From the IMG/VR virus record IMGVR_UViG_3300017917_002765, positions 1-64,000 of that record: a stretch of 64,000 bases of DNA. One strand, 5' to 3'. Made by a program: the position numbers and the translations under genes. Each line of letters opens with the position of its first letter. Position 1 is the stretch's first letter. This document shows positions 27,203-55,773 of the stretch, one piece after another. The notes under the pieces were generated by a model. That model was not told the DNA's origin. It was given only the letters and a program-made list of their open reading frames with translations, and made no database searches. Source of the DNA: a virus.

Positions 27203-27293
27203 TGGTGTCTCTGGAGGGATTCGAACCCACGATGGTGCTTTCACACGTCAGCTTAAAAGGCTGTTCCGTTCGGCCAGCTACGGGAACAGAGAC
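27203..27293 (-). tRNA. tRNA-Lys(UUU), long variable arm, encoded CCA
   Basis: Acceptor gtctctg/cagagac; loop ctTTTaa; T-loop ttcgaat. Confidence 0.8.
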
Positions 27294-27298
27294 ATTTG

Positions 27299-27372
27299 TT
27301 GACGTGATGGGAGTTGAACCCACATAAATCTCCTTAAGAGGGAGTTCCGAATGCCTTTACGGGTACACGTCA
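27299..27372 (-). tRNA. tRNA-Lys(CUU)
   Basis: Acceptor tgacgtg/cacgtca; ctcc-ctCTTaa-ggag. Confidence 0.75.
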
Positions 27373-27380
27373 GTGTTTAG

Positions 27381-27453
27381 TGTCCCCGACAGGGTTCGAA
27401 CCTGTGACCTACTGGTTAAAATCCAGTTGCTCTACCTACTAAGCTACGGAGAC
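27381..27453 (-). tRNA. tRNA-Lys(UUU)
   Basis: ctgg-atTTTaa-ccag; canonical T arm. Confidence 0.85.
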
Positions 27454-27575
27454 ATAATATTCCTATTAAGCACCCGTAGCTATTTAACCACAGATGCCTT
27501 TAACGTTTGGATTTTCGTTTAGATTTGAAGGTCATCTTTTTCATAATGTGTTTTTTTTTGTTGTTAATAATTTTG

Positions 27576-27647
27576 AGCATCATACAGAAATCGAATCTGC
27601 GTCCCCACATTGGCAATGTGGTATAATAGCCACTATACGAATGATGC
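27576..27647 (-). tRNA. tRNA-Gly(GCC)
   Basis: ccaca-ttGCCaa-tgtgg; U73. Confidence 0.9.
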
Positions 27648-27750
27648 ATGGAGCAACCTCAGATAACAAATTTCCTATTGCTAGTTTTTGGAGTTATCCT
27701 CTGGTTGCGTGTTAAGTTTTAATTTTCACCAGTCTTAACAACTGGCTGAG

Positions 27751-27822
27751 AGCAGACAACGGGTCTCGAACCCGCCCCCGAACTTTGGAAGACTCCCGTG
27801 CCACCAACAACACCTTGTCTGC
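27751..27822 (-). tRNA. tRNA-Gly(UCC), weak anticodon stem
   Basis: Acceptor gcagaca/tgtctgc; U73; loop ctTCCaa. Confidence 0.75.
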
Positions 27823-27869
27823 ATTTGACTTTCTGACCTCCTTCATACGGAGTTCAAAGTCTAATACCA

Positions 27870-27955
27870 TGGAGCCGAAGGAGGGACTCGAACCCCCGAT
27901 GTTCTTTCGATGGCTGATTACAAATCAGCTGCTGTCGCCACTGAGCCACTTCGGC
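27870..27955 (-). tRNA. tRNA-Thr(UGU), long variable region, encoded CCA
   Basis: gctga-ttTGTaa-tcagc. Confidence 0.88.
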
Positions 27956-28014
27956 ATTAATGACTTTCTATGCTACGGTTGTTCACCGTCTATGAAAATC
28001 TAACAGTCTAGAAG

Positions 28015-28100
28015 TGGGGGAGGAGGGATTCGAACCCCCTGAGTTTCTTATGTGCCAGATTTACAGTCTGGTGCCCATCCGCCATCTGAGCAGCTCCCCC
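28015..28100 (-). tRNA. tRNA-Tyr(GUA)
   Basis: ccaga-ctGTAaa-tctgg; long variable arm. Confidence 0.9.
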
Positions 28101-28172
28101 AAAAACAGAGTGATGTTTTCGATTCAAAATAAAAGTTTGATGATTGTTAATTTGCTGAAATCACTCTTCTTG

Positions 28173-28259
28173 TTGCGCCAATAGGATTTTAACCTATACC
28201 TAGGGTTTTTCAACCACCAAGTTCAAAGGGTAATACCCTGCCAGTTAGGCGATAGCGCA
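28173..28259 (-). tRNA. Atypical tRNA-Gln(UUG)-like RNA
   Basis: Acceptor tgcgcta/tggcgca; ctTTGaa within an enlarged loop; extra GAAA hairpin; T-loop ttaaaat. Confidence 0.55.
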
Positions 28260-28265
28260 GTGTTG

Positions 28266-28336
28266 TTGTCCCGACACGATTCGAACGTATATCAAAGGCT
28301 TCAAAGACCCTTATTCTGCCATTAAACTACAGGACA
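28266..28336 (-). tRNA. tRNA-Gln(UUG)
   Basis: agggt-ctTTGaa-gcctt. Confidence 0.85.
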
Positions 28337-28344
28337 ATATTTTG

Positions 28345-28417
28345 TAGAGTAGAGAGGACTCGAACCTCCAACCTTACGGTCCCAAACCGTATAATCTACC
28401 AATTGATATACTACTCT
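28345..28417 (-). tRNA. tRNA-Pro(UGG)
   Basis: tacgg-ttTGGga-ccgta. Confidence 0.88.
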
Positions 28418-28473
28418 ATGAAAATCCAACATTTCAAATAACACTCGGTCAATATTTTACTTGGTGACCAACC

Positions 28474-28516
28474 AAAAACAAAAAACCCTAGTCTGGTTTT
28501 ATTTAGACTAGGGTTT
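28474..28516 (-). terminator. Attenuator terminator of the Pro/Gln/Tyr/Thr/Gly/Lys tRNA operon
   Basis: AAACCCTAGTCT-loop-AGACTAGGGTTTTTTGTTTTT. Confidence 0.85.
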
Positions 28517-28539
28517 GCGTTTTCTTTCTTTTACTTGGT

Positions 28540-28641
28540 TTAACTCCAACTTTTATGAAGAGACATGCATACACCTAGTCCTACTCGGCCTTGTTTGCCT
28601 TGCGGATACTGTTTACCTGTATATGTGGTTGTCGTTTTCAT
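28540..28641 (-). CDS. Leader peptide sensing K/T/Y/G/Q/P (33 aa, not in ORF track)
   Basis: MKTTTTYTGKQYPQGKQGRVGLGVCMSLHKSWS; contains GGACTAGG, complementary to the terminator 5' arm. Confidence 0.85.
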   Translation of the reverse strand: MKTTTTYTGKQYPQGKQGRVGLGVCMSLHKSWS

Positions 28642-28696
28642 AAGATTTTTTTATCTTTGTTTTTAAATAAATATGCTTTTGTTTATAAAAGTAATG

Positions 28697-28727
28697 CAAA
28701 GGTACTAAACTTTTTTCAATTTGTCAA
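28697..28727 (-). promoter_or_regulatory. Promoter TTGACA-N17-TACCTTTG
   Basis: Bacteroidota -7 element TAnnTTTG; the same architecture precedes all four leaders. Confidence 0.75.
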
Positions 28728-28731
28728 GTTT

Positions 28732-29199
28732 TTAATCAGATTTTTTTTCTGATTTTTTTGGACGACCTCTTTTTTTCTTTGGAGGATTTAATTTATCACG
28801 AAGCTCAGCAGCTTTCAAATAATCTTCATTCGCTAGTGCTTCTTCTAATTGTTCTTGTAGTAATTTTTGGTTAACAACTTTTTTCCCTTTTGGTGAATTT
28901 GTAAATGGTTTATCACTTACAACAAGTTTAACAATATCACCTTCTGGTGTATGCCAAATTTTTTTCTCATAAAAAACAACCCCATCAGAATATGTTTCAA
29001 TCTTATCTGGTTCACCAAGACTATCATCCATTTGTTTTTCTAAATTTTCATCAATATTAGGTATATTTTGGAAATTCATCAGCATATCCATCATTTTTCT
29101 AATCTCTTCCTTCATATTACCTATTTCAATAAATGGGTTTATGGAATTATTTCTTTTTCTGAAAAATTCATTAAATAAATCGTCAAAATTTTTATCCAT
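28732..29199 (-). CDS. UvrB/UvrC-motif protein with AT-hook-like tail
   Basis: LEEALANEDYLKAAELRD; KRGRPKK. Confidence 0.75.
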   Translation of the reverse strand: MDKNFDDLFNEFFRKRNNSINPFIEIGNMKEEIRKMMDMLMNFQNIPNIDENLEKQMDDSLGEPDKIETYSDGVVFYEKKIWHTPEGDIVKLVVSDKPFTNSPKGKKVVNQKLLQEQLEEALANEDYLKAAELRDKLNPPKKKRGRPKKSEKKSD

Positions 29200-29632
29200 G
29201 TTTTTTTAGTTTTGATTTTATGTTATTATGTGTGGTTTTTAAATTAAACGAAAAAACTTTTAAAATATTTATATTATAAAAATACATAAACATAGCAAAA
29301 AATATACCAGCCAATACGTACATAAAACTCATCGTCATCCAATAGTCATGTGTTATACAATTAATACCATAAACTACCAAATCATAACCAAACGGGTTTA
29401 AAAACAAAGCAATTGTTATTAGCCAATTCCCAAGGTTTGTTTTATCCACCTTGAAGGAAAGATAAGACAGCCCAAAGAATAGGGCCGCAAACGCATATAA
29501 CACGCACATTGTATACCAATAGTCGTTGGTTAATTGTGTCAGTTTGTACACCAAAATATCGAACCCAAATGGGTTGAGAAAAGTTGCTATCGTTAAGCAA
29601 ACTGTCCCCATCATCTTTCTGTTTATCACCAT
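29192..29632 (-). CDS. Membrane protein with internal duplication
   Basis: Two copies of FLNPFG[FY]D..VY..T.DYW.TM. Confidence 0.75.
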   Translation of the reverse strand: MVINRKMMGTVCLTIATFLNPFGFDILVYKLTQLTNDYWYTMCVLYAFAALFFGLSYLSFKVDKTNLGNWLITIALFLNPFGYDLVVYGINCITHDYWMTMSFMYVLAGIFFAMFMYFYNINILKVFSFNLKTTHNNIKSKLKKHG

Positions 29633-29736
29633 CCATTCGTTTATATTTTAGTTCAATAGGATTAAATTATTTAGCCCTACTTTTATCGGTTTTACCTAGT
29701 ATAAGCGAAACAACTCAATGCTTCACTTACAAATGA

Positions 29737-29913
29737 TTACATAACTACAGTTGTATCGGTAGTAACACATGTGTCAACCGCTGGTAGGCTAGTAGTGTCA
29801 ACACAAACTTCAGTGCTATCTGTTGTTGAAACCTCTGCCTCAGAACCAACTGGACTGCACGATGCTAATACCAAAACAAACACTGCAATGATTGCGAAGA
29901 ATACTTTTTTCAT
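29737..29913 (-). CDS. Small lipoprotein (not in ORF track)
   Basis: MKKVFFAIIAVFVLVLASC lipobox followed by a D/T/S-rich tail. Confidence 0.65.
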   Translation of the reverse strand: MKKVFFAIIAVFVLVLASCSPVGSEAEVSTTDSTEVCVDTTSLPAVDTCVTTDTTVVM

Positions 29914-29994
29914 TGTTCTTGTTTTTTGTTTTTAGTTATCGCTTTTGGCGTTTATAAATATTATTTTAATACAAATTTACTAATAAATATTGAT

Positions 29995-30246
29995 TTAGTC
30001 AAGAAAATCACCAACATTATTTTGATAAACCCATAAATGGTTGTACATATTTAAAATGGTTATTTCCAATTGAAATGCTGGTGTATGTTCACTTTTAAAT
30101 CGGTCTAAATTAATCTTAAACTCAAAAAATGTTAGCCCATCTTTAAAGTCTCTGATAAAGGAAAAAAGTTGAACTTCATAGTTCCATTTTTTCCATAATT
30201 GGCCGTAAAAAACTAATCCTATATTCATATGTTTTTTAGTTAACAA
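29995..30246 (-). CDS. Hypothetical protein
   Basis: 83 aa ORF. Confidence 0.55.
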   Translation of the reverse strand: MLTKKHMNIGLVFYGQLWKKWNYEVQLFSFIRDFKDGLTFFEFKINLDRFKSEHTPAFQLEITILNMYNHLWVYQNNVGDFLD

Positions 30247-30416
30247 GAACAGAGGCTTGTGGGAATCTCACCTTGGTCCTAGGACCTTTACACTATTTCA
30301 CCCCCTGTACATGGATTATTTAGACCCATTGGATGCCCGTGGTCAGCCACAGCTCTTTTTGGTTATATCCCAAATGAGGGAAAGGGAGCCACCCTAGTGC
30401 TACACAAGCTTGTTCT
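30246..30416 (-). ncRNA. Candidate structured RNA
   Basis: GC-richer intergenic block with terminal pairing agaac-agcttgtg / cacaagc-gttct. Confidence 0.45.
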
Positions 30417-30423
30417 ATTATAG

Positions 30424-30508
30424 TGGGCAGGGGTGGACTCGAACCACCAATCAATTTAACCAATTGTAGACCCGATTAAACTGGCTTTTTCCCGCTAGCT
30501 ACCCGCCC
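30424..30508 (-). tRNA. tRNA-like RNA with a 12-bp extended anticodon arm
   Basis: Acceptor gggcggg/cctgccc; T arm ggtgg-ttcgagt-ccacc; arm cagtttaatcgg-gtctacaa-ttggttaaattg. Confidence 0.65.
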
Positions 30509-30509
30509 A

Positions 30510-30609
30510 TTTCAGATGCTTTACACCATGTTAACCCAGTGTTTAGCTTAGCCACCTTTGACATGTGTGACCTTCGTCTTGTCATCGACATTTCCGATAC
30601 GTTCTGAAA
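30510..30609 (-). ncRNA. Candidate structured RNA
   Basis: Closing stem tttcaga/tctgaaa between two tRNA-like genes. Confidence 0.3.
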
Positions 30610-30626
30610 CACACCGCACAAATATG

Positions 30627-30699
30627 TGGGACGGGATGGAGTCGAACCACCGACACGTGCCTCTTCAGGGCACTGCTCTACCAACTGAGCTACCGTCCC
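30627..30699 (-). tRNA. tRNA-Phe(GAA)
   Basis: gtgcc-ctGAAga-ggcac. Confidence 0.92.
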
Positions 30700-30702
30700 A
30701 AA

Positions 30703-30832
30703 AACCGAGGATAGCTTTTCGGAATCTAATATGGTTACCCATACTTAACACACCATTAGAGAGCTGAGCATTACTGCTTATCCTTAGTGTGTACCTCTAG
30801 AAGCGTCTCTCCACGCTTGCTATCCCACTGGT
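30703..30832 (-). ncRNA. Candidate structured RNA
   Basis: Closing ggatagc/gctatcc; internal hairpin aagcgt-ggagag-acgctt. Confidence 0.45.
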
Positions 30833-30847
30833 TCTTTCGGTCTAGGA

Positions 30848-31063
30848 TTAGTTAGTCGTTACTGAACGATTTCTACGAGTCCTTGTTGAAGCTTCAACAT
30901 CACTTCTAAGATAATCGTTAGGAAGTTCACCATTCCTTTTCATTGCGGCCAATACACCAGCAAATGTCATACGTGGCACACCAAGTCTTTCAGCCATATA
31001 AGCATTTGTACGCTTGTGGCCACATTGTAGGATGTACGCTCTGATTTGTTTTGAAGTTTTCAT
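30848..31063 (-). CDS. Small HTH-like protein
   Basis: NAYMAERLGVPRMT. Confidence 0.6.
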   Translation of the reverse strand: MKTSKQIRAYILQCGHKRTNAYMAERLGVPRMTFAGVLAAMKRNGELPNDYLRSDVEASTRTRRNRSVTTN

Positions 31064-31387
31064 AAAATTTGTTTTTTGTTTATGTTGTTATTTATTATGA
31101 TGCAAAGGTACGATTTAGTTTTTTATTGTGCAAGTTTTCTTAAAAATTTTTTTTAGTCTAAATAAACACCAAAGTAATAGATACACATTAAATCATAGGA
31201 AACACCAAAATCATAAATCTTTTTAAATGTGACCATATCATCAGCACCCAATGCTTTTTTAGCAGCATTAAGTATTACATCACCAATCGCTTGTAGAATA
31301 ATTTTCTTCATAACGCAAAGGTACTAAAAAGATTTTGAAGATGCAAGCTTTAAAACAAAAAAAAAAACCCCTAATTAGGGGCTTTTG

Positions 31388-31509
31388 CGGACGTAAGCCG
31401 ATTCGAACGGCTACCTCTTGCGGGACAGGCAAAAATAAAGATTGGGTTGCTGAAATCATCTTTGTCAAGATGACCTTTTTAAATTATGCTACCATTACAC
31501 CATACGTCC
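31388..31509 (-). tRNA. tRNA-Asp(GUC) with an insertion of about 51 nt between the D arm and anticodon arm
   Basis: Acceptor ggacgta/tacgtcc; G73; D arm gtgt-aatggta-gcat; ttgc-ctGTCcc-gcaa; T arm agccg-ttcgaat-cggct. Confidence 0.7.
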
Positions 31510-31511
31510 AT

Positions 31512-31808
31512 TTATTCTTCTTCAATAGGAAAACAAAAGTCTTCCATTTCTTCATCACTAAATTGTTGTAGGTACAAATTAAGATTTGTTTTAAAATCAT
31601 AATCAAAGTCAATCAATTCATTTGTTAATTCTTCCCATTCACCAAACTTCAAAGCAAATTCTTTTAAATTTTTATCAATCTTAGCCACGTATTCATAAAA
31701 AGACCAAAAAGATATTTCAATAAATGTATTATCAATTAGAAAACACCTAAAATAACTTTCTTCTTTTTCTGTGAATACGAATTCATAATTTCGAATTAGG
31801 TTTATCAT
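31512..31808 (-). CDS. Acidic hypothetical protein
   Basis: 98 aa ORF. Confidence 0.6.
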   Translation of the reverse strand: MINLIRNYEFVFTEKEESYFRCFLIDNTFIEISFWSFYEYVAKIDKNLKEFALKFGEWEELTNELIDFDYDFKTNLNLYLQQFSDEEMEDFCFPIEEE

Positions 31809-31874
31809 ACTTTTTTAATACAAAAATACTAAAAAATTTTATACCAAACAACTATATTTTATCCAAATAATTAG

Positions 31875-31948
31875 TGGAGAGTTGGGGAATTGAACCCCAC
31901 ACACGATGATTGCAAATCATTGTCGCCAGCCTTGGTACATGACTCCCC
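31875..31948 (-). tRNA. tRNA-Ala(UGC)
   Basis: G3:U70 pair; loop ttTGCaa. Confidence 0.9.
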
Positions 31949-31951
31949 GTT

Positions 31952-32056
31952 AAAAACTAAATAGGTCTTCGTCTCTCCTAGCTGGCCCACAAAGCCCGAC
32001 TCGAACGGGAATGCTAGCAACCCAATCCAGCTTGCCCAAAAGGGTATTTAGTTTTT
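31952..32056 (-). ncRNA. Candidate structured RNA containing a tRNA-type T loop
   Basis: 12-bp closing stem aaaaactaaata/tatttagttttt; agctgg/ccagct; cccg-ttcgagt-cggg. Confidence 0.55.
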
Positions 32057-32057
32057 G

Positions 32058-32129
32058 CGGTCTATAAGGGAATCGAACCCTTACCACATCATAGACAGTG
32101 ATGTATCCTAGCCATTGGACCAATAGACC
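32058..32129 (-). tRNA. tRNA-Asp(GUC)
   Basis: catca-ctGTCta-tgatg; G73. Confidence 0.9.
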
Positions 32130-32139
32130 GTATTAAAAG

Positions 32140-32211
32140 TAGCCCCAACGGGAATCGAACCCGTCTTTTTAGGTTGAAAACCTAACGTCCTAACCGATAG
32201 ACGATAGGGCC
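32140..32211 (-). tRNA. tRNA-Glu(UUC)
   Basis: ttagg-ttTTCaa-cctaa. Confidence 0.9.
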
Positions 32212-32217
32212 ATTTTG

Positions 32218-32290
32218 TGGTGAGAAAGGGTGTCGAACCCTTATCTCTGGTTTTTCAGACCAGCGCATAGACCACCTTTGCTATCTCACC
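32218..32290 (-). tRNA. tRNA-Phe(GAA)
   Basis: ctggt-ctGAAaa-accag. Confidence 0.9.
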
Positions 32291-32302
32291 ATATTTTAAA
32301 AC

Positions 32303-32334
32303 AAAAAAGCTTGGTCATTTCTGGCCAAGCTTTT
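32303..32334 (-). terminator. Attenuator terminator of the Phe/Glu/Asp/Ala tRNA operon
   Basis: AAAAGCTTGGCCA-GAAA-TGACCAAGCTTTTTT. Confidence 0.85.
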
Positions 32335-32357
32335 CATCTATTTATTAAACTTTGAGT

Positions 32358-32450
32358 TTACTTTTTAGACAATAGTTGACCACCTAGGCTTTTATCAGCC
32401 TCGGCTGCGAATTCAAACGCAAAATCAAATATGTTAGCAAAAGTTCTCAT
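32358..32450 (-). CDS. Leader peptide sensing F/A/D/E (30 aa, not in ORF track)
   Basis: MRTFANIFDFAFEFAAEADKSLGGQLLSKK; TGGTCAA can pair with TTGGCCA in the terminator. Confidence 0.85.
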   Translation of the reverse strand: MRTFANIFDFAFEFAAEADKSLGGQLLSKK

Positions 32451-32496
32451 TGTTTTTGTTTTTAATTAAATATCTACTTGTTTTAAAAAGTTATTG

Positions 32497-32527
32497 CAAA
32501 TGTACTAAGTATTTTTGAATTTGTCAA
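32497..32527 (-). promoter_or_regulatory. Promoter TTGACA-N17-TACATTTG
   Basis: Same architecture as the other leader promoters. Confidence 0.75.
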
Positions 32528-32540
32528 GTTTTTTGTAAAA

Positions 32541-33572
32541 TTATTTTAATATACCAACTAGAGTTGCAATCGAATTAACTAATTTTATATAAACACCACT
32601 AGGTTGTGTATCAATATCTTCTATACTTTGACCAGCTAAATTATAATAATAAACTCTTTTAATATAATCATCAAACTTTACAGATACCACATTTGAATAT
32701 ACAAAATTACCGTCAAAATCAACTTGTTTTAAACGATAATAATAAGTATTACCTTTTATAACTTCAAAATCATCAAAAGAATATGATTTTAAAGTACTAG
32801 AGTTCCCATGACCATTAACCCATCCAACTAATTCAAAATAAGATGAATTCAAACTTCTTTGGATTTCAAAACCATTATTATTGACCTCAGAATTTGTTTT
32901 CCAAGTTAAATGTGAATATTTATTTTCTATATTTTCAGCATTGAAAGATGAAAGACTTACAGGTAATGCTGTTCCTGAATTAATTAAAGTCCATTTACGA
33001 TTAGAAGCAAAACCTATGGTGTCTGTGGAAGAACCAATACTATATAAAGCTGTCGATGAATTTACCCAAACACTTGATGGATTATAATAATTTAAAACCA
33101 AATCATTGTAGTTATATGGTATATCATTTATATCATAAGTTAAAGTTACGGTAGCAACTGGTTTGGTTGTAAAATTTGATAAATCTATTGTCCAATATCT
33201 ATTAATACTACTAGAATTATAATACGAAGTATTTGATGTAACAGCTGTATCAACGTTAGAAAATTTTATTGAGCTTCCATCACCAGCATTTGTAATGTTT
33301 AAATAAATTGGTAAATAAACGCTTGAATATGATATAAATGGTACAATATATGTTCCTTTATTATTTTGTATATTCCATTCAACAAAACCACCCATTGTAT
33401 CTGGCACATAAAACCCACCACCAGATGAATAAATTGATGACACGCTTGTATCACAAACATAAACGTTACCACCAGATTTTAAAGTAATATAAGATTGGTT
33501 ATCTATAAAAATTGATTGTGCATTGATGAAAGCACAAATCAAAACAAACATAAATGTGATTAACTTTTTCAT
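32541..33572 (-). CDS. Secreted Bacteroidota-type protein with T9SS-substrate-like C-terminus
   Basis: Signal peptide; LPVSLSSF..W.T.SE.NN.GFEIQRS..YYYRLKQVDFDG; YNLAGQ..GVYI. Confidence 0.75.
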   Translation of the reverse strand: MKKLITFMFVLICAFINAQSIFIDNQSYITLKSGGNVYVCDTSVSSIYSSGGGFYVPDTMGGFVEWNIQNNKGTYIVPFISYSSVYLPIYLNITNAGDGSSIKFSNVDTAVTSNTSYYNSSSINRYWTIDLSNFTTKPVATVTLTYDINDIPYNYNDLVLNYYNPSSVWVNSSTALYSIGSSTDTIGFASNRKWTLINSGTALPVSLSSFNAENIENKYSHLTWKTNSEVNNNGFEIQRSLNSSYFELVGWVNGHGNSSTLKSYSFDDFEVIKGNTYYYRLKQVDFDGNFVYSNVVSVKFDDYIKRVYYYNLAGQSIEDIDTQPSGVYIKLVNSIATLVGILK

Positions 33573-33574
33573 AA

Positions 33575-34921
33575 TTAATTCCTAATAATTAATACGTGTA
33601 AGCTACCTTGTCTAGCAGCTGTATTAGCTGATGAAACGTTAGCACTAACACCAGCAGTATAAACGGTTCTAACGTCAATTGTGTGTGAACCAGCACTTAA
33701 AGCTTGAAATGATGTTAATGTCCATTGATTACCTGTATTTGTAACATTTGAGCCAGAACCTGAATTAGCCGCAGTAACTCTTGTATAACTACCATTTGTT
33801 GGATATGAGCCATCAATGAATATTGCAAAATCTAATGTAGAATACCCAGTACTAGATGTGCTGTTTGTATTAAATGTACCATCAGTATAAATCATAACAA
33901 AACAATTTGAAGGTATCGTAAGTGTTGTTGTTAGACCTGGTATTGTGGTAAATGTTGTTGTAGATGTTGTAACCAATAATGTAGAACTACCGTAAACTGA
34001 TGTTACTGAATTTCCAAGTGCAGACCATGATAAACCACCAGAACCATCATTTCTAAGAAAAGTATTTGCTGTGCCTTGAGCTGTTGGTAGCGTCATTGAA
34101 TATGAAGTTGTAGTTGTGCCACCGTTAATCGTTACGGTATTGCTATTGGTTGAATTAGCGAATCTTAAACTTCCATCAATAGCACTGGCATTATTACCTA
34201 ATATAAAACCTGTATAGTTAGGTGAAGCAGTAGAGGAAAATCTACCTAATTCTTTATTGGCCACCACAAAACCAAATGAATTGGTCCCAGACCTATAAAT
34301 GCCAGAGTTAGCGTCATTATTAAATCTAATAGCTGGTGTTCCTGTACCACCGTCATTAACTATAACCCCACTATTTGTTTTTATGGCTCCAACAACATCC
34401 AATTTAACACTTGGTGAAGTGGTGCCTATACCAACTGAAGTCCCATCATTATAAATGTTTGAATTGTTTAACACCCACTGAGTCCCATCCCAATATGTTG
34501 TATTACCAGTTGCAGCACCAGAACCTATTAAACCAGTAGCTCCTTGGTTACCCTGTGCACCAGTAGCTCCTTGATTACCCTGTGGGCCAGTAGGACCTTG
34601 ATTACCTGTGGGACCTTGTGGACCTGTAGGCCCCTGTGCACCTGTAGGACCTTGATTACCTGTAGGACCCTGTACACCTGTAGGACCTTGATTACCTGTG
34701 GGACCTTGTGCCCCAACATTTCCATTTATTATTGGTAATCTGATTACTTTTCCAGTATTTGTAACCCCAATGTATTGGGAGTCTAGACCACTTACACCTC
34801 TTATTGTTAAGTCTCCATTAATATCAAGTGTTGTTTGTGGTGAATTTGTGTTTATACCCACATTTTGAGCAAAAACATTAATCGTTAATAAAACGAAAAG
34901 GATTGATAAAATTTTTTTCAT
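33575..34921 (-). CDS. Secreted collagen-repeat / fibre-like protein
   Basis: Signal peptide, [12 protein letters not shown] repeats, VGIGTTSP motif. Confidence 0.8.
34526..34715 (-). repeat. Collagen G-X-Y coding tandem repeat
   Basis: Repeated GPTGNQ/GAQ/GAT units. Confidence 0.9.
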
Positions 34922-34962
34922 GTCTGATTTTTATCATAAGTATATTAAATAATTCAACTAAG

Positions 34963-35301: not shown

Positions 35302-35307
35302 TAAAAA

Positions 35308-35682: not shown

Positions 35683-35688
35683 AATATT

Positions 35689-35964: not shown

Positions 35965-36011
35965 AACGTATTTTTATAATAAATATTTTGATTAATAAAG
36001 AAAGTCTAAAG

Positions 36012-36093
36012 TAGGGATAGAGGGACTCGAACCCCCACGCCTTTCGGCACTACATCCTAAGTGTAGCGTGTCTACCAATTCCACCATATCCCC
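36012..36093 (-). tRNA. tRNA-Leu(UAG)
   Basis: ctaca-ctTAGga-tgtag; long variable arm. Confidence 0.92.
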
Positions 36094-36149
36094 ATAGAGT
36101 GTAGTAGCTGGTACCTAGCTTGTGGTTACTACACATTTTATCCACTTTG

Positions 36150-36233
36150 TAGCCAAGGAGGGAATCGAACCCCCACGCCCTTTCGAGCACCAGATTTTGA
36201 GTCTGGCGTGTCTACCTGTTCCACCACTTGGCC
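36150..36233 (-). tRNA. tRNA-Leu(CAA)
   Basis: ccaga-ctCAAaa-tctgg. Confidence 0.92.
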
Positions 36234-36237
36234 ATTT

Positions 36238-36305
36238 CGGAAGGCGTACTCATTAGAGATACTTCCGTCAGTTACGTTGCTTTCGCAAGAGGCTTTACTG
36301 AGCAC
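36238..36305 (-). ncRNA. Candidate compact pseudoknotted RNA between Leu tRNAs
   Basis: gtgctca/tgagtac, cggaag/cttccg, ttgc-gaaa-gcaa. Confidence 0.4.
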
Positions 36306-36309
36306 CATG

Positions 36310-36395
36310 TACCGAGAGTGGGACTCGAACCCACACGACCTTTTAGGGTCACAGCATTTTAAGTGCTGCGTGTCTACCTGTTCCACCATCTCGGC
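36310..36395 (-). tRNA. tRNA-Leu(UAA)
   Basis: cagca-ctTAAaa-tgctg. Confidence 0.92.
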
Positions 36396-36455
36396 ATTAC
36401 GTTACAAAGGTACAAATAATTATCTTATTTTGCAAATCCTATGCAACTTTTTTTG

Positions 36456-36540
36456 TAGGTCCACCCAGATTCGAACTGGGATTATACTTCTCGTCTCCAC
36501 TTTGTAAGAGTGGGATGTTTAGCCATTACACCATGGACCT
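36456..36540 (-). tRNA. tRNA-Val(UAC), long variable region
   Basis: ccact-ctTACaa-agtgg; 16-nt variable segment. Confidence 0.85.
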
Positions 36541-36549
36541 ATTTTATTG

Positions 36550-36621
36550 AGTCCCCAATTGGATTTGAACCAATGTAAGAGATTTTGCAGACCTCTGCCT
36601 AAGCCACTCGACCATAGGGAC
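36550..36621 (-). tRNA. tRNA-Cys(GCA)
   Basis: gaggt-ctGCAaa-atctc; U73. Confidence 0.9.
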
Positions 36622-36623
36622 AT

Positions 36624-36654
36624 AAAAAAAGCCTATCTTTTTAGGATAGGCTTT
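36624..36654 (-). terminator. Attenuator terminator of the Cys/Val/Leu tRNA operon
   Basis: AAAGCCTATC-loop-GATAGGCTTTTTTT. Confidence 0.85.
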
Positions 36655-36682
36655 CTAGTATTTTCAGTTTATGATTACTTAC

Positions 36683-36757
36683 TTAACAAGCAAAGCCCAC
36701 CCAGTCTGCTACTAGCAAACATAAGACAAGGACTAAATTTGTTAATGACGTTTTCAT
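36683..36757 (-). CDS. Leader peptide sensing L/V/C (24 aa, not in ORF track)
   Basis: MKTSLTNLVLVLCLLVADWVGFAC; GGGTGGGCTTT pairs with AAAGCCTATCC. Confidence 0.85.
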   Translation of the reverse strand: MKTSLTNLVLVLCLLVADWVGFAC

Positions 36758-36786
36758 TGTTTTTTGTCGTTTTTAATAAATATACA

Positions 36787-36817
36787 CAAAGGTACAAAAA
36801 GTTTTTCAATTTGTCAA
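36787..36817 (-). promoter_or_regulatory. Promoter TTGACA-N17-TACCTTTG
   Basis: Same architecture as the other leader promoters. Confidence 0.75.
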
Positions 36818-36857
36818 GTTTTTTAAAAGAAAAAATGTATTTATAGATAAAAAGTGT

Positions 36858-47685: not shown

Positions 47686-48276
47686 TTATTTAGTAGTTAT
47701 TAAAACTTCATCACCCTCAGATAAATCCTCAACTTTACGATAACAAGATAACTTTGGTAACCAAACTCTGTGGTTTCCAGTTAATTTTATTGTTTCACCA
47801 TTTTCCATTTCTATTTCATACCAGTTGTTAATATTATTTTTAACAGAATGTGCCAGTATTTCATCAAAAACGATTTCGTTTTTTTCTATATCGTAAGATA
47901 ATACTTTACCAGAATATTTAGTATCACAAATTTCTTTAATACTTTTTTCACCAACTTCTGTTATTAGGATAGTTGTCTCATCAAGACAACCGTCCAATTT
48001 TTCAAGAACATGAGCAGTGTTCCAATCTATCTTGTGTGCGTTGCCTTCTTCTGAATTGAAAAATTTGGTGAACGCCAATGACATTACCTTCCAAGTATCT
48101 TTTTCAAGGACAAGTCCACGACATTCTTGAACTTCTGGCTTAGCCATAAGTGTTGGACTACATAATTGGTCATATTTCAACAATACTTTTGTATCATAAA
48201 CCCTAGTTTTAAGGTCAAATGCAAGTATGGTTTTAGCCAATCCGTTCTCTTTGATGTATTTTTGTATTGCTAACAT
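47686..48276 (-). CDS. Rnl1-type RNA ligase N-part (aa 1-96) fused to a split intein N-part (aa 97-196)
   Basis: ECRGLV, KFFN, EKLDG|CLDETT; intein block B LTGNHRVW; ends L.EGDEV. Confidence 0.9.
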   Translation of the reverse strand: MLAIQKYIKENGLAKTILAFDLKTRVYDTKVLLKYDQLCSPTLMAKPEVQECRGLVLEKDTWKVMSLAFTKFFNSEEGNAHKIDWNTAHVLEKLDGCLDETTILITEVGEKSIKEICDTKYSGKVLSYDIEKNEIVFDEILAHSVKNNINNWYEIEMENGETIKLTGNHRVWLPKLSCYRKVEDLSEGDEVLITTK

Positions 48277-48583: not shown

Positions 48584-48597
48584 GGTTAAAAATTTAG

Positions 48598-48670
48598 TAG
48601 TCCCAGAGGGATTCGAACCCCCATAAAGAGCTTAGAAGGCTCTTGTCCTAATCCATTGAACGATGGGACC
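48598..48670 (-). tRNA. tRNA-Arg(UCU)
   Basis: agagc-ctTCTaa-gctct; near copy of 54201..54271. Confidence 0.9.
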
Positions 48671-48678
48671 GTAAAAAA

Positions 48679-49060: not shown

Positions 49061-49990
49061 TTACTTCACAATTTCTGTTACAAAACCAGTAATAAAAAAT
49101 GGTTTAACATCTTGCCATTTGGTGATATCATTCGACAACACTGGTTTACCGCCATCTGGGTTTACAGCAATCGTAACGTGAGGAATAGCGTTTTTAGATG
49201 GATACCCTTCAACTTGTACTGCCATAGCCATATCAGACAGACCAACTTTTGTCACCTTCAAAATGACTTCCTTGCCAATGTCAGTCTTATCCTTTAACTC
49301 ACCCATTGTTATTGTCATGTGGTGGGCATAAGTCTTCCAACCATCTGGAATTTCCAATACAAATCGCTCAAGCAATTTATTGTGTGAAGCCTTATCCAGA
49401 AGAACACAAGAATACAGTACGTTTGATTTATTATACATGTCTTTAGAATCCAAAACACTTTTAAGGGTAAGAGGTCCTTGTGCTGTGTGACTAGCAATCA
49501 TAGCTTCAATCCTTTCTAACGGAACGCCATGAGTGTTTCTAGCAGCCAATTGTGTAGCCTCAAGTCCAGCGGTACCAACATCAACAAATTTTATGTTGTT
49601 ATCAGCAAAACCCATTTCAAGAGCCGCTACAACATATGCTTTTGGTTCGTTTTGCTTAATGTTTGTGTTGTCAACAATAACTGGTGTAATCCCAGCTTTC
49701 ATCGAAGTAATTGCATCTTTTAAATTTTGTGAGTGAACCTTGCTTAGAGCACTAAAATCACCAGTAGCAATCATCTTAGCAAAAAACTCAAGATAATCAC
49801 CAGATTTCTCAATAACATCGTCTGTTGAATGAATTTTACCTTGACCTACAAGTGATTTAGCCTTGGTTGATTTTCCAGCTCCAGGTATCCCACGCATAAC
49901 AATAAGCTCTTGGTTAGGTCTGGTTACAGACACGCCCAATGAGTTTTTTTCTGAACCCTCACGCAGTATTTCTTTGATTTTTTCTTTCAT
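49061..49990 (-). CDS. Polynucleotide kinase plus cyclic phosphodiesterase (Trl1-like healing enzyme)
   Basis: RGIPGAGKST, STDD, VDNTN, RNTHGVP; C-terminal 2H motifs HMTI and HVTI. Confidence 0.85.
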   Translation of the reverse strand: MKEKIKEILREGSEKNSLGVSVTRPNQELIVMRGIPGAGKSTKAKSLVGQGKIHSTDDVIEKSGDYLEFFAKMIATGDFSALSKVHSQNLKDAITSMKAGITPVIVDNTNIKQNEPKAYVVAALEMGFADNNIKFVDVGTAGLEATQLAARNTHGVPLERIEAMIASHTAQGPLTLKSVLDSKDMYNKSNVLYSCVLLDKASHNKLLERFVLEIPDGWKTYAHHMTITMGELKDKTDIGKEVILKVTKVGLSDMAMAVQVEGYPSKNAIPHVTIAVNPDGGKPVLSNDITKWQDVKPFFITGFVTEIVK

Positions 49991-50721: not shown

Positions 50722-50766
50722 TCTGAATTTTACAAATAAATATGTTGTTTATTAGAAAAATAATTA

Positions 50767-51366
50767 TTAATTATCTTCAACACTTACAAGTTCTATTATG
50801 TTAGGATTGTAAACAATAATGTGGTTACCCTCACCTTGATGTCTTGGTACGATTATACCATCTATACCCATCTTAACCATATTTCTAACATATTCAACTG
50901 GTTCGTATCGATAAAATTCAATCCATATTTGTTGAGCCAAATCTTTTTCAGTATCATTATAATCTATTGAACTATCTACAGCCATTGTTAGCCCTTTATA
51001 TGGGTTTATATCAAAATTTTGAGCAGTAGCTTTCCAATCTGGTGCCATACGCATCACTTTGGTTGTGAATGCTTTCCATTTCGATGGAACCAATGGTGTC
51101 ATATCCATCAACTTTCTTGGGGAGAGTTTTACAGTGTATATTTTATTGCCGTAAACTTCAGCTTCTTCTTTAACCGTTGTAAAATAAATTCCAGGTCCTT
51201 CTTGGTCCATAGCTTCAGCTCCACCTACAAACTCATCTGAAAAACGTTTAATTTCAGCTTTGGTTCCGTGGAATACAGTATAAGAGCCACCTTTGGTGAT
51301 TTCATGAATAAGTGATTCTCGAAGTCTTTTAGTTATTAAGTCTTTCATTTTAATATACGTCATCAC
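50767..51366 (-). CDS. ADP-ribosyltransferase-fold (ART-PolyVal-like) protein
   Basis: VFHGT, GPGIYFT....A..YG, GIDGII; LRESL N-terminus. Confidence 0.65.
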   Translation of the reverse strand: MMTYIKMKDLITKRLRESLIHEITKGGSYTVFHGTKAEIKRFSDEFVGGAEAMDQEGPGIYFTTVKEEAEVYGNKIYTVKLSPRKLMDMTPLVPSKWKAFTTKVMRMAPDWKATAQNFDINPYKGLTMAVDSSIDYNDTEKDLAQQIWIEFYRYEPVEYVRNMVKMGIDGIIVPRHQGEGNHIIVYNPNIIELVSVEDN

Positions 51367-54042: not shown

Positions 54043-54105
54043 AATTTATTTAGTTAATTCATTTATGTATGCAATTAAATGTGGAAACATATTGGTTATT
54101 TAAAG

Positions 54106-54194
54106 CGGAGAATTGGTTAATCGAAAACCATGCGGTTTTTGGCCGCACCCATTGTTTAGCAAACAAGTCTGGGACCCTGCCCAGTTAATTCTCC
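54106..54194 (-). tRNA. tRNA-Ser(GCU)
   Basis: ttgt-ttGCTaa-acaa; long variable arm; G73. Confidence 0.88.
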
Positions 54195-54200
54195 ATATTG

Positions 54201-54271
54201 TAGTCCCAGAGGGACTCGAACCCCCATAAAGAGCTTAGAAGGCTCTTGTCCTTCCGTTGAACGATGGGACT
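54201..54271 (-). tRNA. tRNA-Arg(UCU)
   Basis: agagc-ctTCTaa-gctct. Confidence 0.9.
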
Positions 54272-54278
54272 ATTATAG

Positions 54279-54358
54279 TACAGACGGAGGGACTCGAACC
54301 CCCATTTACAACTCCATTTACGGTTACTAAGTTCGTAGCTTAGCTCGGTTACGTCTGC
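54279..54358 (-). tRNA. Atypical tRNA-Arg(ACG) lacking a normal D arm
   Basis: Acceptor gcagacg/cgtctgt; only 8 nt before ctaag-ctACGaa-cttag; long variable region. Confidence 0.7.
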
Positions 54359-54363
54359 ATTTG

Positions 54364-54433
54364 TTGCGTGGAACGGAGCCGAACCGTCTTACTCTGCCTT
54401 ATGAGAGCTGAGCCTTTTCCAATAAGCCACGCA
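54364..54433 (-). tRNA. Atypical tRNA-Met(CAU)
   Basis: Acceptor tgcgtgg/ccacgca; loop ctCATaa; irregular D and anticodon stems. Confidence 0.65.
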
Positions 54434-54438
54434 ATGTG

Positions 54439-54509
54439 CTCAGATGTAGGGAATCGAACCCTATTCCTACGAGTTAACAGCTCGTTGCTCGCCATTGAGC
54501 TTCATCTGA
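54439..54509 (-). tRNA. tRNA-Asn(GUU)
   Basis: acgag-ctGTTaa-ctcgt; G73. Confidence 0.9.
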
Positions 54510-54515
54510 ATGTTG

Positions 54516-54600
54516 CGGATTGGATAGGATTCGAACCTATGTGAACCTTACGGCCTTCGTGTTAACAGCACGCTGCTCTGACCAACTGAGCTACCAATCC
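54516..54600 (-). tRNA. tRNA-Asn(GUU), long variable arm
   Basis: cgtg-ctGTTaa-cacg; ggcc-gtaa-ggtt arm. Confidence 0.85.
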
Positions 54601-54608
54601 ATATTTTG

Positions 54609-54684
54609 TCTTGAGGGTGGGACTCGAACCCACACGTGCGAAGATATAAGCTTCCCAGTCTGACCAGTTGACTATTACCTCAAG
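54609..54684 (-). tRNA. tRNA-Ile(UAU)
   Basis: gaag-ctTATat-cttc; A73. Confidence 0.8.
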
Positions 54685-54693
54685 AATTTAAAG

Positions 54694-54777
54694 TTGTGAG
54701 GGTGGGAGTCGAACCCACCTATAGAAATTAATCTCCAGTGTATCAGACTGGTGCCCAAACCGCTAGACCACCTCACA
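54694..54777 (-). tRNA. tRNA-Ile(GAU), long variable region
   Basis: ccagt-ctGATac-actgg. Confidence 0.85.
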
Positions 54778-54890
54778 ATAATTTATTTTAATTTCCTAAA
54801 CCATAAACCGCCCCAGTTTATTATTATATTCACTAGCATCCATCTCTGTGGAGACCAAACAATTGTTTGGTGACGGTTAAAGTTTAAAAG

Positions 54891-54963
54891 GGTGCTATAG
54901 GAGTTTCGAAATCCCGACCTCTGGTTCCACAAACCAGCGCTCTGCCTCTGAGCTAATAGCACC
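54891..54963 (-). tRNA. tRNA-His(GUG)
   Basis: G-1:C73; ctggt-ttGTGga-accag. Confidence 0.9.
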
Positions 54964-55054
54964 ATGTTTGAAAGTGTAATTTACTGCACTTTTCATGTTA
55001 AATAAGCTTTTTATATCAGTTATTTAGTCTGATAGTGTAATTTATTACACTTTG

Positions 55055-55128
55055 GGTGTAGGACGATAGTCGAACTCGCAACTACAAGGCTCACAACCTA
55101 GCGTTATACCGTTAAATCTACCTACACC
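55055..55128 (-). tRNA. tRNA-His(GUG), atypical T arm
   Basis: G-1:C73; loop ttGTGag. Confidence 0.75.
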
Positions 55129-55205
55129 ATATAAGACCACCCCGTAAGTGGTCAGGACAAACACGTCTTTGTCTGGACAGCGATATTTCCCTTTGGGAAT
55201 ACTAG

Positions 55206-55292
55206 AGGAAGGTGGAGGACCCGACCCCCTGACGGCTCATCACCGCCACCCTAATTTTCAAGACTAGTTTTGCTCCATGCAAGGCACCTTCC
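55206..55292 (-). tRNA. tRNA-Ser(UGA), atypical T loop
   Basis: ctagt-ctTGAaa-attag; long variable arm; T loop gtcgggt. Confidence 0.75.
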
Positions 55293-55297
55293 ATTAG

Positions 55298-55380
55298 CAC
55301 ACTCGGTAGAAGTCGAATCTACAACCATTTAATCCTAAGAACAGATTTGGAGTCTGTTGGTCACGCCCATGAGCGAGTGT
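55298..55380 (-). tRNA. Atypical tRNA-Trp(CCA)
   Basis: aacaga-ctCCAaa-tctgtt; small D loop; long variable region. Confidence 0.7.
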
Positions 55381-55385
55381 ATATG

Positions 55386-55456
55386 CACACCTGCTTCGAC
55401 TTGAACGAAGAACGTCCGTTTTGGAGACGGAAATTTTACCATTAAACTACAGATGT
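55386..55456 (-). tRNA. tRNA-Trp(CCA)
   Basis: tccgt-ctCCAaa-acgga; G73. Confidence 0.88.
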
Positions 55457-55517
55457 ATAATAACCAATATGTCAAATAACGTCTGACCAATATTTTATTT
55501 GGTGGTCAACCAAAAAT

Positions 55518-55553
55518 AAAAAACCCGACCTAGATTTTTATCTGAGTCGGGTT
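55518..55553 (-). terminator. Attenuator terminator of the Trp/Ser/His/Ile/Asn/Met/Arg tRNA operon
   Basis: AACCCGACTCAGAT-loop-ATCTAGGTCGGGTTTTTT. Confidence 0.85.
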
Positions 55554-55576
55554 CTTCTTTTTTATTTGTTTGTTTC

Positions 55577-55678
55577 TTAAAAATCACATAAGAAACTTAC
55601 AGACATAGCCGACTCAAATGGATTGCTATTGCGTCTCCACATGCTAATCGAATTAATATGTATGTTTATGTTTCTCAT
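55577..55678 (-). CDS. Leader peptide sensing R/N/I/H/S/M/W (33 aa, not in ORF track)
   Basis: MRNINIHINSISMWRRNSNPFESAMSVSFLCDF; TGAGTCGG is perfectly complementary to CCGACTCA in the terminator. Confidence 0.87.
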   Translation of the reverse strand: MRNINIHINSISMWRRNSNPFESAMSVSFLCDF

Positions 55679-55742
55679 TGTTTTTGTTTTGTGGGTTTCC
55701 CCTGTTTTTTATTAAATATGTGCTTTTTCTTAAAAGTTAATG

Positions 55743-55773
55743 CAAATGTACTAACTATTTTTCAATTTGTCAA
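55743..55773 (-). promoter_or_regulatory. Promoter TTGACA-N17-TACATTTG
   Basis: Same architecture as the other leader promoters. Confidence 0.75.

Follow-up and report, generated by a model that had tools for sequence, protein, structure and literature searches.

Multivalent leader-peptide attenuators are established in enterobacteria, where thrL (Thr/Ile) and the ilvGMEDA leader (Ile/Val/Leu) each respond to more than one amino acid, and comparative work has reportedly described amino-acid attenuators in the Bacteroidetes/Chlorobi group. To our knowledge, all described leader-peptide attenuators regulate enzymes of amino acid biosynthesis or aminoacyl-tRNA synthetases. Control of a whole tRNA array is documented for the trn operon of Anabaena sp. 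PCC 7120. This supernumerary array is silent until translation is impaired and is induced under such stress through promoter repeats (PMC8421152, in which the terms 'leader peptide' and 'attenuat' occur zero times); the repressor TrcR and direct repeats mediate this control at the promoter level (PMC10272220). Here we describe four tRNA units of the virus record IMGVR_UViG_3300017917_002765 in which a short open reading frame (ORF) and a terminator precede the tRNA genes. The window analysed comprises the first 64 kb (64,000 nt) of this 136,575-bp record (31% G+C). Unlike the biosynthesis and synthetase targets of the known leader-peptide attenuators, the regulated genes are tRNAs. On the comparative sequence evidence given below, we consider it likely that the units are ribosome-mediated (leader-peptide) transcription attenuators on tRNA genes that would form a feedback loop on decoding capacity. 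A phage of Bacteroidota would then probably make each tRNA block only upon slow decoding of the codons which that block serves. The units bear on the question of why tRNA genes are present in phages and how they are controlled there.

The order of elements is the same in each unit: promoter, A-rich 5' untranslated region (UTR) of 29-64 nt, ORF starting with ATG, GC-rich hairpin followed by a T run, and tRNA genes. The first-pass annotation, made from the sequence of the window alone, had proposed this common layout for four tRNA clusters on the minus strand, and it was borne out at all four, with promoter, ORF and terminator located in each. A-rich translation starts are reportedly the subject of work on Flavobacterium. 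The features are as follows.

Unit 1, promoter: 28697..28727, minus strand, TTGACA-N17-TAnnTTTG
Unit 1, leader ORF: 28540..28641, minus strand, 33 aa; codons 2-18 all Lys/Thr/Tyr/Gly/Gln/Pro
Unit 1, antiterminator strand: 28572..28581, minus strand, ORF nt 61-70; duplex with the terminator 5' arm, -11.9 kcal/mol
Unit 1, intrinsic terminator with T run: 28480..28515, minus strand
Unit 1, tRNA block: 27203..28417, minus strand, Pro, Gln, one odd tRNA-like gene, Tyr, Thr, Gly (two), Lys (three)
Unit 2, promoter: 32497..32527, minus strand
Unit 2, leader ORF: 32358..32450, minus strand, 30 aa; 14 of 16 residues in codons 4-19 are Phe/Ala/Asp/Glu
Unit 2, candidate antiterminator strand, the weakest of the four: 32376..32384, minus strand, ORF nt 67-75; -7.6 kcal/mol
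Unit 2, intrinsic terminator: 32303..32332, minus strand; T run ends 12 nt ahead of tRNA-Phe
Unit 2, tRNA block: 31874..32290, minus strand, Phe, Glu, Asp, Ala
Unit 3, promoter: 36787..36817, minus strand
Unit 3, leader ORF: 36683..36757, minus strand, 24 aa; codons 8-16 all Leu/Val/Cys
Unit 3, antiterminator strand: 36692..36702, minus strand, ORF nt 56-66; -15.3 kcal/mol
Unit 3, intrinsic terminator: 36624..36654, minus strand; T run ends 2 nt ahead of tRNA-Cys
Unit 3, tRNA block: 36011..36621, minus strand, Cys, Val, Leu(UAA), Leu(CAA), Leu(UAG)
Unit 4, promoter: 55743..55773, minus strand
Unit 4, leader ORF: 55577..55678, minus strand, 33 aa; codons 2-19 all Arg/Asn/Ile/His/Ser/Met/Trp
Unit 4, antiterminator strand: 55609..55619, minus strand, ORF nt 60-70; -15.6 kcal/mol
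Unit 4, intrinsic terminator: 55518..55551, minus strand
Unit 4, tRNA block: 54105..55456, minus strand, Trp, Trp-like, Ser(UGA), His (two), Ile(GAU), Ile(UAU), Asn (two), Met, Arg(ACG), Arg(UCU), Ser(GCU)
Copies of the shared 19-mer: 28712-28730, 32512-32530, 36802-36820 and 55758-55776, minus strand

This 19-mer, AACTTGACAAATT[G/C]AAAAA, occurs exactly four times in the window, always on the minus strand (chance expectation 0.71; at least four copies in 0 of 100 shuffles), and no further copy exists elsewhere in the 136,575-bp genome. All four copies are part of a TTGACA-N17-TAnnTTTG promoter, the -7 box of which, TAnnTTTG, we take to be the Bacteroidota consensus. The upstream regions of the four units share 64% mean column identity and are near-identical from the promoter into the UTR, so that the units can be regarded as paralogues.

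The leader ORFs, 33, 30, 24 and 33 aa in length, are identical to those written in the first-pass annotation, and its claim that the first half of each is built from the amino acids of the tRNAs behind it holds. Residues of the own set occupy 13/13, 11/13, 10/13 and 13/13 positions in codons 4-16 of leaders 1-4, while the other sets account for 0-2. Given set background frequencies of 0.15-0.32, the binomial P is 2e-7 to 3e-6 per leader. Among the 565 small ATG ORFs of the genome (20-45 aa, six frames), only the four leaders reach at least 10/13 cognate residues; the other 561 score 9 or less. The leaders are confirmed as real and lie far beyond chance. The match extends to individual codons: when those readable by standard wobble are counted first and those requiring extended U34 wobble are added, own-block tRNAs read 16 plus 1 of 17, 11 plus 3 of 16, 7 plus 3 of 12 and 18 of 18 control codons. 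The leaders of units 2, 3 and 4 contain a codon for each anticodon species of their block (five species in unit 3, 10 in unit 4), that of unit 1 for six of eight species, and leader 4 contains ATA alongside Ile(UAU) and AGC alongside Ser(GCU).

Altogether, 29 tRNA genes and a transfer-messenger RNA (tmRNA) were found by ARAGORN and by Rfam alike, all on the minus strand and all within the window. The calls in block 4 include weak ones. Ser(UGA) and Met(CAU) were called by ARAGORN at lowered thresholds only; in Rfam, the former scores 28.1 bits with the tRNA-Sec model (gathering score 47) and the latter 23 bits with the tRNA model (gathering score 29). Ser(GCU) at ~54105-54194 is an ARAGORN call at -ps70 only, and the atypical tRNA-like gene at 54278-54358 (Rfam 32.9 bits) is Arg(ACG) by our own reading. 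Met, Arg(ACG) and Ser(GCU) are present at the corresponding places in relatives. The earlier claim that the four sets sum to 20 amino acids stands insofar as the four units cover all 20, while the count depends on these weak calls. The accompanying claim that the phage monitors the whole code is slightly too strong, as some tRNAs follow a promoter with no leader and the pairing of leader with block is broken in some relatives. Outside the four units, the window contains a Met cluster (60861-61121), Arg(UCU) at 48597-48670, Phe together with an odd tRNA (30423-30699) and the tmRNA.

Three tRNA-like genes of the window are unusual in themselves. The one in block 1 (28172-28259) has an 8-nt anticodon loop. 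For another, at 30423-30508, the ARAGORN call changes with the setting between Asp(AUC), an intron-containing Gln and a UAA reader (UUA), and in the Trp-like gene at 55297-55384 the variable arm is long and the acceptor stem poor. Several ordinary tRNAs of the window (Thr, Lys, Val, Asn, Ile) are also 85-91 nt in length.

Downstream of each ORF, a GC-rich hairpin with a T run is predicted at -11.8 to -17.3 kcal/mol. The distances from the end of the T run to the first tRNA are 62, 12, 2 and 61 nt in units 1-4, and at 12 and 2 nt the tRNAs of units 2 and 3 require read-through of the terminator. Terminators were taken from RNAfold. A simple terminator scan, whose stem rule uses up the T run, reported hairpins of units 1-3 on the plus strand only and missed unit 4. 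As the first-pass annotation had proposed, each of the four ORFs contains a complement to the 5' arm of its own terminator; these segments are 9-11 nt long, lie at ORF nt 56-75 and pair at -7.6 to -15.6 kcal/mol. Unit 2 offers an alternative pairing at ORF nt 45-55 (-10.7 kcal/mol).

Folding with and without a ribosome mask indicates that the predicted balance between terminator and antiterminator depends on the position of the ribosome. The minimum free energy fold of each full leader contains the terminator, with the ORF folded back on itself. A 1:2 (protector/pause) hairpin appears in all four of these folds and in the consensus of class 3 described below, and in truncated transcripts the antiterminator is still predicted to be ahead without a ribosome. 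For mask folding, transcripts were ended just before the 3' arm of the terminator and the ribosome footprint was masked. With the A site on codons 2-15, the terminator 5' arm is predicted to pair upstream (P = 0.80-1.00). With the ribosome over the antiterminator segment, the probability of upstream pairing falls to 0.05-0.27, and in unit 2 just to 0.57-0.69. The runs of cognate codons stop where, in this model, stalling would no longer free the segment.

To collect related loci, IMG/VR viral contigs were scanned twice by pattern and once by protein, which brought in related contigs of 5 to 247 kb; tRNA searches of their records added further stretches. In the first promoter scan, four of 35 loci were true relatives. 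Among GenBank phages, megablast with positions 27000-37000 returned four short tRNA-like matches only and no close relative, and blastn with leader 4 returned one weak partial match; the protein encoded upstream of unit 2, when used as a query for related loci, yielded no relative. The collection holds 36 distinct leaders (class 1, n = 7; class 2, n = 4; class 3, n = 9; class 4, n = 16), and six later leaders entered the alignments only. Where the contig extends far enough, all members of a class precede one type of tRNA block, with exceptions given further below.

Among these relatives, composition is kept while the order of residues changes, as in the class 1 leaders of the window, L055 and L099. 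Cognate residues amount to 100% at codons 7-18, 8-19, 10-15 and 5-18 of classes 1-4, respectively, and then drop sharply. In the control columns, 22 of 27 variant codons of class 4 (null 0.43, P = 4e-5) and 13 of 14 of class 2 (null 0.22, P = 3.5e-8) remain within the set. One control column contains AGC, AGT, TCG and AAT and thus keeps Ser across both of its codon boxes, and both internal indels in the class 3 ORF alignment are multiples of three. Together, the within-set changes, the switch of Ser codon box and the indels in threes suggest that selection acts on the set of tRNAs required for decoding the leader and not on the peptide sequence.

The RNA elements are conserved along with the codons. 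All 36 leaders are followed by a hairpin and T run (-11.1 to -18.3 kcal/mol). The best duplex of an ORF with its own terminator arm averages -12.7 kcal/mol versus -8.6 kcal/mol with non-cognate arms and was matched in 0 of 10,000 permutations, a figure that is not a true probability because the sequences are related and permutation tests ignore relatedness; the best site always lies at ORF nt ~50-76. When leaders are grouped by terminator subfamily, the pairing with the own arm (the diagonal) dominates in class 1 (-14.1, -14.2 and -10.7 versus -7.0 to -12.1 kcal/mol) and in four of the five subfamilies of class 4 (-13.1, -14.0, -17.1 and -11.9 versus -4.4 to -11.7 kcal/mol). The fifth pairs with its own arm at -8.1 kcal/mol and better with that of a sister subfamily (-11.9 kcal/mol). 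The diagonal is not dominant in class 2 and the comparison is flat in class 3.

Compensatory changes occur in both kinds of helix. In the class 4 antiterminator (alignment of 13 sequences), 92% of the cells are paired and double changes are found at five of eight pairs (10 cells); none of 500 shuffles reaches the observed pairing or covariation score, and slid controls pair in 15-52%. The class 3 terminator (11 sequences) is 100% paired with four compensatory pairs (0 of 500 shuffles). The evidence for the class 3 antiterminator in the same number of sequences is moderate, with 87% of cells paired, two compensatory pairs, and 7/500 and 19/500 shuffles. For class 3, RNAalifold predicts the terminator as well as a hairpin in which part of the antiterminator strand is paired with the control codons.

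A second phage lineage divides its tRNAs differently. By the A1-like protein (44% identity), the nearest cultured phages are Cellulophaga phages phi4:1 and phi17:2 and a Maribacter phage, whose hosts are Flavobacteriia; the Cellulophaga phages are reportedly covered by a genome paper. Phage phi4:1 (NC_021788.1) carries a single tRNA array (87196-90926), in which the genes are ordered differently and three units with other promoters are found:

phi4:1 unit A: leader MKIQRLHLQELEQP..., ahead of Pro, Glu, Gln, His, Leu(UAG), Leu(UAA), Arg(ACG)
phi4:1 unit B: leader ...TKTGITVIDKTKGARAY..., ahead of Ala, Lys, Ile, Gly, Met, Asp, Thr, Val, Arg(UCU), Met
phi4:1 unit C: leader MKTNYCTYNNSNWSFSY..., ahead of Tyr, Ser(UGA), Ser(GCU), Asn, Trp, Phe and one further tRNA with GCA in the loop

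Leader B is partly annotated as gp075, and its start codon is uncertain, perhaps GTG. The leaders follow this phage's own three-block partition, both block by block and in their choice of codons. Within codons 4-16, leaders A, B and C have 11/13, 13/13 and 11/13 residues from their own set and 0-3 from the other sets. Arg is encoded by CGT in leader A, whose block holds Arg(ACG), and by AGA in leader B, whose block holds Arg(UCU), and the Leu codons of leader A are TTA and CTA, with both Leu species in block A. Each unit has a terminator and, at ORF nt 50-68, a complement of its 5' arm (-11.8 to -14.3 kcal/mol). Parts, geometry, codon-to-tRNA match and co-variation are thus documented at the sequence level in the window and its relatives.

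These observations can be combined into the following model. Transcription from a strong promoter would yield an RNA that opens with an A-rich 5' UTR followed by a short ORF, codons ~4 to ~18 of which would be those read by the tRNAs encoded downstream. If a ribosome stalled there for want of charged cognate tRNA, ORF nt 55-73 would stay free and could pair with the emerging 5' arm of the terminator; once this antiterminator had formed, RNA polymerase would read through into the tRNA block. With fast decoding, the ribosome would cover the segment, the terminator would form and no tRNAs would be made. Since the product, tRNA, is the sensed molecule, each unit would act as a negative-feedback loop on decoding capacity. 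We infer leader translation, the sign of the switch and its physiological trigger. The attenuation reading, already put forward in the first-pass annotation, is favored because of the anatomy of the units, the conserved composition of the leaders, the co-varying antiterminator and the independent partition in phi4:1, and it agrees with the folding results and the compensatory changes.

Several observations weigh against it. In the window, leader 2 contains two non-cognate codons (Asn, Ile), the pure cognate run of leader 3 is just nine codons long with a few non-cognate codons besides, and a promoter-like site lies inside block 3 at 36435, as is also the case inside the blocks of the relative L055. 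In the folding model, the antiterminator probability without any ribosome is 0.81-0.99, so that the model does not separate a stalled ribosome from no ribosome, and at full-length equilibrium the terminator is favored in nearly every state of units 1, 2 and 4. An antiterminator that forms without a ribosome and a terminator that wins at equilibrium imply that the switch must be kinetic. The relatedness that the permutation tests ignore counts on the same side. The class 2 antiterminator is weak and without clean co-variation, and for one of its members (L069) the own arm pairs at -5.2 kcal/mol and all 35 of 35 non-cognate arms pair equally well or better. Among the relatives, two contigs (G004, G009) keep a class 4 leader and terminator ahead of protein genes and have no tRNAs there; in G009 no tRNA above the cut-off was found over 52 kb, and leaders 1-3 are absent. 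A third (G008) has a Phe/Glu/Asp/Ala block behind a plain promoter with no leader. Block 1 of L099 holds a His tRNA and block 2 of L097 a Met tRNA with no corresponding residue in their leaders, and the leader of G005 retains Ala codons ahead of a block 2 without Ala. Within classes, gain or loss of leader residues tracking gain or loss of tRNAs was not found, and the observed cases (L099, L097 and G005) run contrary to it.

The genes between and beside the blocks have some bearing on what the trigger might be:

RNA ligase (PF09414): 43172-44221, minus strand, between blocks 3 and 4
T4 Rnl1-type RNA ligase split by an intein: 47686-48276 and 45735-46691, minus strand, with a DUF7487 ORF between the parts
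Protein with a kinase domain and a tRNA-ligase cyclic phosphodiesterase (CPD) domain: 49061-49990, minus strand

A DNA ligase gene is also located between blocks 3 and 4. When a host anticodon nuclease cleaves tRNA during T4 infection, the polynucleotide kinase and Rnl1 of the phage repair the damage, and phage tRNAs reportedly offset host tRNA loss or escape tRNA-targeting defence. By analogy, the repair-type genes would fit a phage that expects attacks on tRNA; this evidence is circumstantial. It is possible, and we suggest it tentatively, that the units constitute an array of decoding-capacity sensors which resolve single isoacceptors. Each leader would test the tRNAs of its own block codon by codon, the trigger would be anticodon nucleases or tRNA loss during infection, and an attack of the host on tRNAs would switch on the matching block only, in concert with the two RNA ligases and the kinase/phosphodiesterase.

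A stalled ribosome is blind to the difference between missing and uncharged tRNA. The same attenuators could in principle report amino acid supply or charging, i.e., starvation, with tRNA output tuned to host nutrition instead of replacing lost tRNA. Furthermore, the same layout is found on amino acid operons in the host phylum. A scan of prokaryote genomes with the promoter pattern yielded 78 loci, of which 10, from Pedobacter and other Bacteroidota, have a 20-aa Phe/Tyr/Trp-rich leader directly after the promoter. In the two inspected, both on Pedobacter chromosomes (L164, L177), the end of the ORF is complementary to the 5' arm of the terminator downstream, and the genes behind this terminator in L164 encode, according to Pfam, prephenate dehydratase and DAHP synthase/chorismate mutase. 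Classical leader-peptide attenuation with the same layout therefore operates in the host phylum, which also speaks for the attenuation reading itself. Against the starvation interpretation, extra tRNA would bring no relief for a lack of amino acids, and the loop would be without pay-off. The match at the codon and isoacceptor level (CGT and AGA in phi4:1, ATA and AGC in unit 4) would be needless for the sensing of amino acids, and G009, which lacks tRNA blocks, also lacks leaders 1-3. On balance, we hold it to be unlikely.

The contigs G004 and G009, which retain leader and terminator with no tRNAs behind them, and the conserved tail of the class 4 peptide would suit yet another explanation, in which ORF and terminator form a fixed leaky terminator or insulator, or a source of a small RNA or peptide, and the codon match is a by-product, e.g., of duplication followed by drift to the local codon supply. 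The class 4 tail, however, overlaps the RNA helices. Near-100% set membership is restricted to the codons at which stalling would be productive, within-set substitutions far exceed the null, the antiterminator co-varies, and the leaders of a second phage lineage follow its different partition. This makes a by-product quite improbable in our estimation. A T-box-like RNA switch, untranslated and in direct contact with tRNA, would account for tRNAs being the regulated genes and for the terminator/antiterminator pair. Yet Rfam returned no T-box or other riboswitch match for the leaders, at the gathering threshold or with E up to 1, and such a switch would have to carry 12-18 different 'specifier' codons in an open frame with ATG and conserved stop, to take its indels in threes and to let Ser switch codon boxes. 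We regard it as very improbable. Chance, finally, has nothing beyond the general abundance of small ORFs in AT-rich DNA in its favor and deserves virtually no weight, since 0 of 561 other small ORFs reach at least 10/13, P is 2e-7 to 3e-6 for each leader with all four assigned correctly, and the feature is conserved in tens of contigs.

Our analyses also yielded a number of observations on the surroundings of the units. A further promoter, of the TTGACAAAT type, lies at 61385 on the minus strand ahead of the Met tRNA cluster (to 60861), from which it is separated by a spacer of ~270 nt. No ORF conserved among relatives was detected in this spacer, which may be a structured RNA. A promoter of the same type precedes ~600 nt of G+C-richer sequence in the relative L027. 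Units 1 and 4 share a conserved element of ~60 nt between terminator and first tRNA (28418-28479 and 55457-55517, minus strand); a TTTGACATATTGG-like motif ahead of the first tRNA is seen in relatives, too, and the element may serve in processing or as a weak second promoter. In many class 4 relatives, a conserved ORF of 63-67 aa or a homing-endonuclease gene lies between terminator and first tRNA. One relative (L047) has two tandem class 4 leaders ~1.5 kb apart (9015-9166 and 10575-10727) with differing terminators and matching antiterminators. The sole leader family to match in Rfam was Phe_leader (RF01859), with unit 3, at 28.9 bits versus a threshold of 55 (E = 0.16); this does not amount to membership and the assignment was rejected.

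Two phage contigs with class 4 leaders and tRNA blocks (L132, L173) are binned into metagenome-assembled genomes labelled Methanobacterium and Saccharibacteria, which is probably a binning error. Several relatives carry tRNAs with a CUA anticodon, which read UAG (L036 at 5408-5481, L048 at ~5955, L051 at ~4477, L053 at ~5295), and one has a UUA anticodon, which reads UAA (L036 at 10006-10096); these hint at stop-codon suppression or recoding in this phage group. The tmRNA of the window (61885-62241, minus strand) encodes a 25-residue tag, has its own promoter-like site at 62344 and resembles tmRNAs in relatives. The tRNA-rich region also contains GIY-YIG/NUMOD homing-endonuclease genes and genes for an ART-PolyVal ADP-ribosyltransferase and an adenylosuccinate synthetase (40879-41640, 62417-63310, 50767-51366 and 57828-58832). 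Three RNA runs with 5-10% of the sampled words contained only short conserved tRNA-like fragments, most of which continued into unlike sequence.

The tRNA arrays of other phages and of cellular genomes served for comparison. No leaders of this kind were seen in T5, where 14 small ORFs were translated and judged by eye, or in crAss001, where seven gaps of the array were inspected by eye; in both, promoters lead straight into tRNAs. In a small sample of 25 distinct tRNA loci from three Bacteroidota genomes, no cognate leader was found, the best small ORF (13 aa) reaching a cognate fraction of 0.5. In full-text literature searches, no account was found, for phages or for cells, of tRNA genes under leader-peptide or attenuation control, in agreement with the first-pass annotation, which knew of none for tRNA genes or phages. 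As far as these searches reach, the mechanism is of a known kind and its use on tRNA genes is not in print. It appears that the phage produces its tRNA blocks on demand, with a trial translation of each block's own codons as the gate. If true, attenuation of the trp/his type would extend to a new class of regulated genes, and this would be the first case known to us of tRNA genes whose expression depends on how fast their own codons are decoded, with the four units as a compact natural sensor set for all 20 amino acids. Because tRNA-repair genes adjoin the blocks, the finding would also bear on tRNA-targeting anti-phage defence. As phi4:1, which has three such units, and its host are in culture, the model is testable now.

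Compared with other phages, the window resembles T5 and crAss001 in its large tRNA arrays mixed with small ORFs and homing endonucleases, and its genome shares with T5 genes of T5 type for an A1-like DNA transfer protein and a nuclease, whereas neither T5 nor crAss001 has tRNA-matched leaders by inspection. With T-boxes, the units have in common the coupling of uncharged tRNA to the choice between terminator and antiterminator; T-boxes, in contrast, bind one tRNA directly and without translation, and control synthetase or amino acid genes. The nearest functional analogue is the Anabaena trn operon, which has one switch for the whole array where the phage has one per tRNA subset. In its construction, the aromatic attenuator of Pedobacter is very similar, with a promoter of the pattern CTTGACAAAT-N13-GTACMTTTG, an A-rich 5' UTR, a short leader, an in-ORF complement of the terminator arm and an intrinsic terminator, but its 20-aa leader is rich in Phe/Tyr/Trp and controls prephenate dehydratase and DAHP synthase, which is the classical use. 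The thrL and ilvGMEDA leaders likewise combine a short ORF, a regulatory run of codons for several amino acids, an intrinsic terminator and an antiterminator strand freed by a stalled ribosome. The phage units would differ from them in that they regulate tRNAs and not enzymes, the product itself being sensed, and in their breadth, with up to seven amino acids and 10 anticodon species per leader and four units that divide the whole code among themselves.

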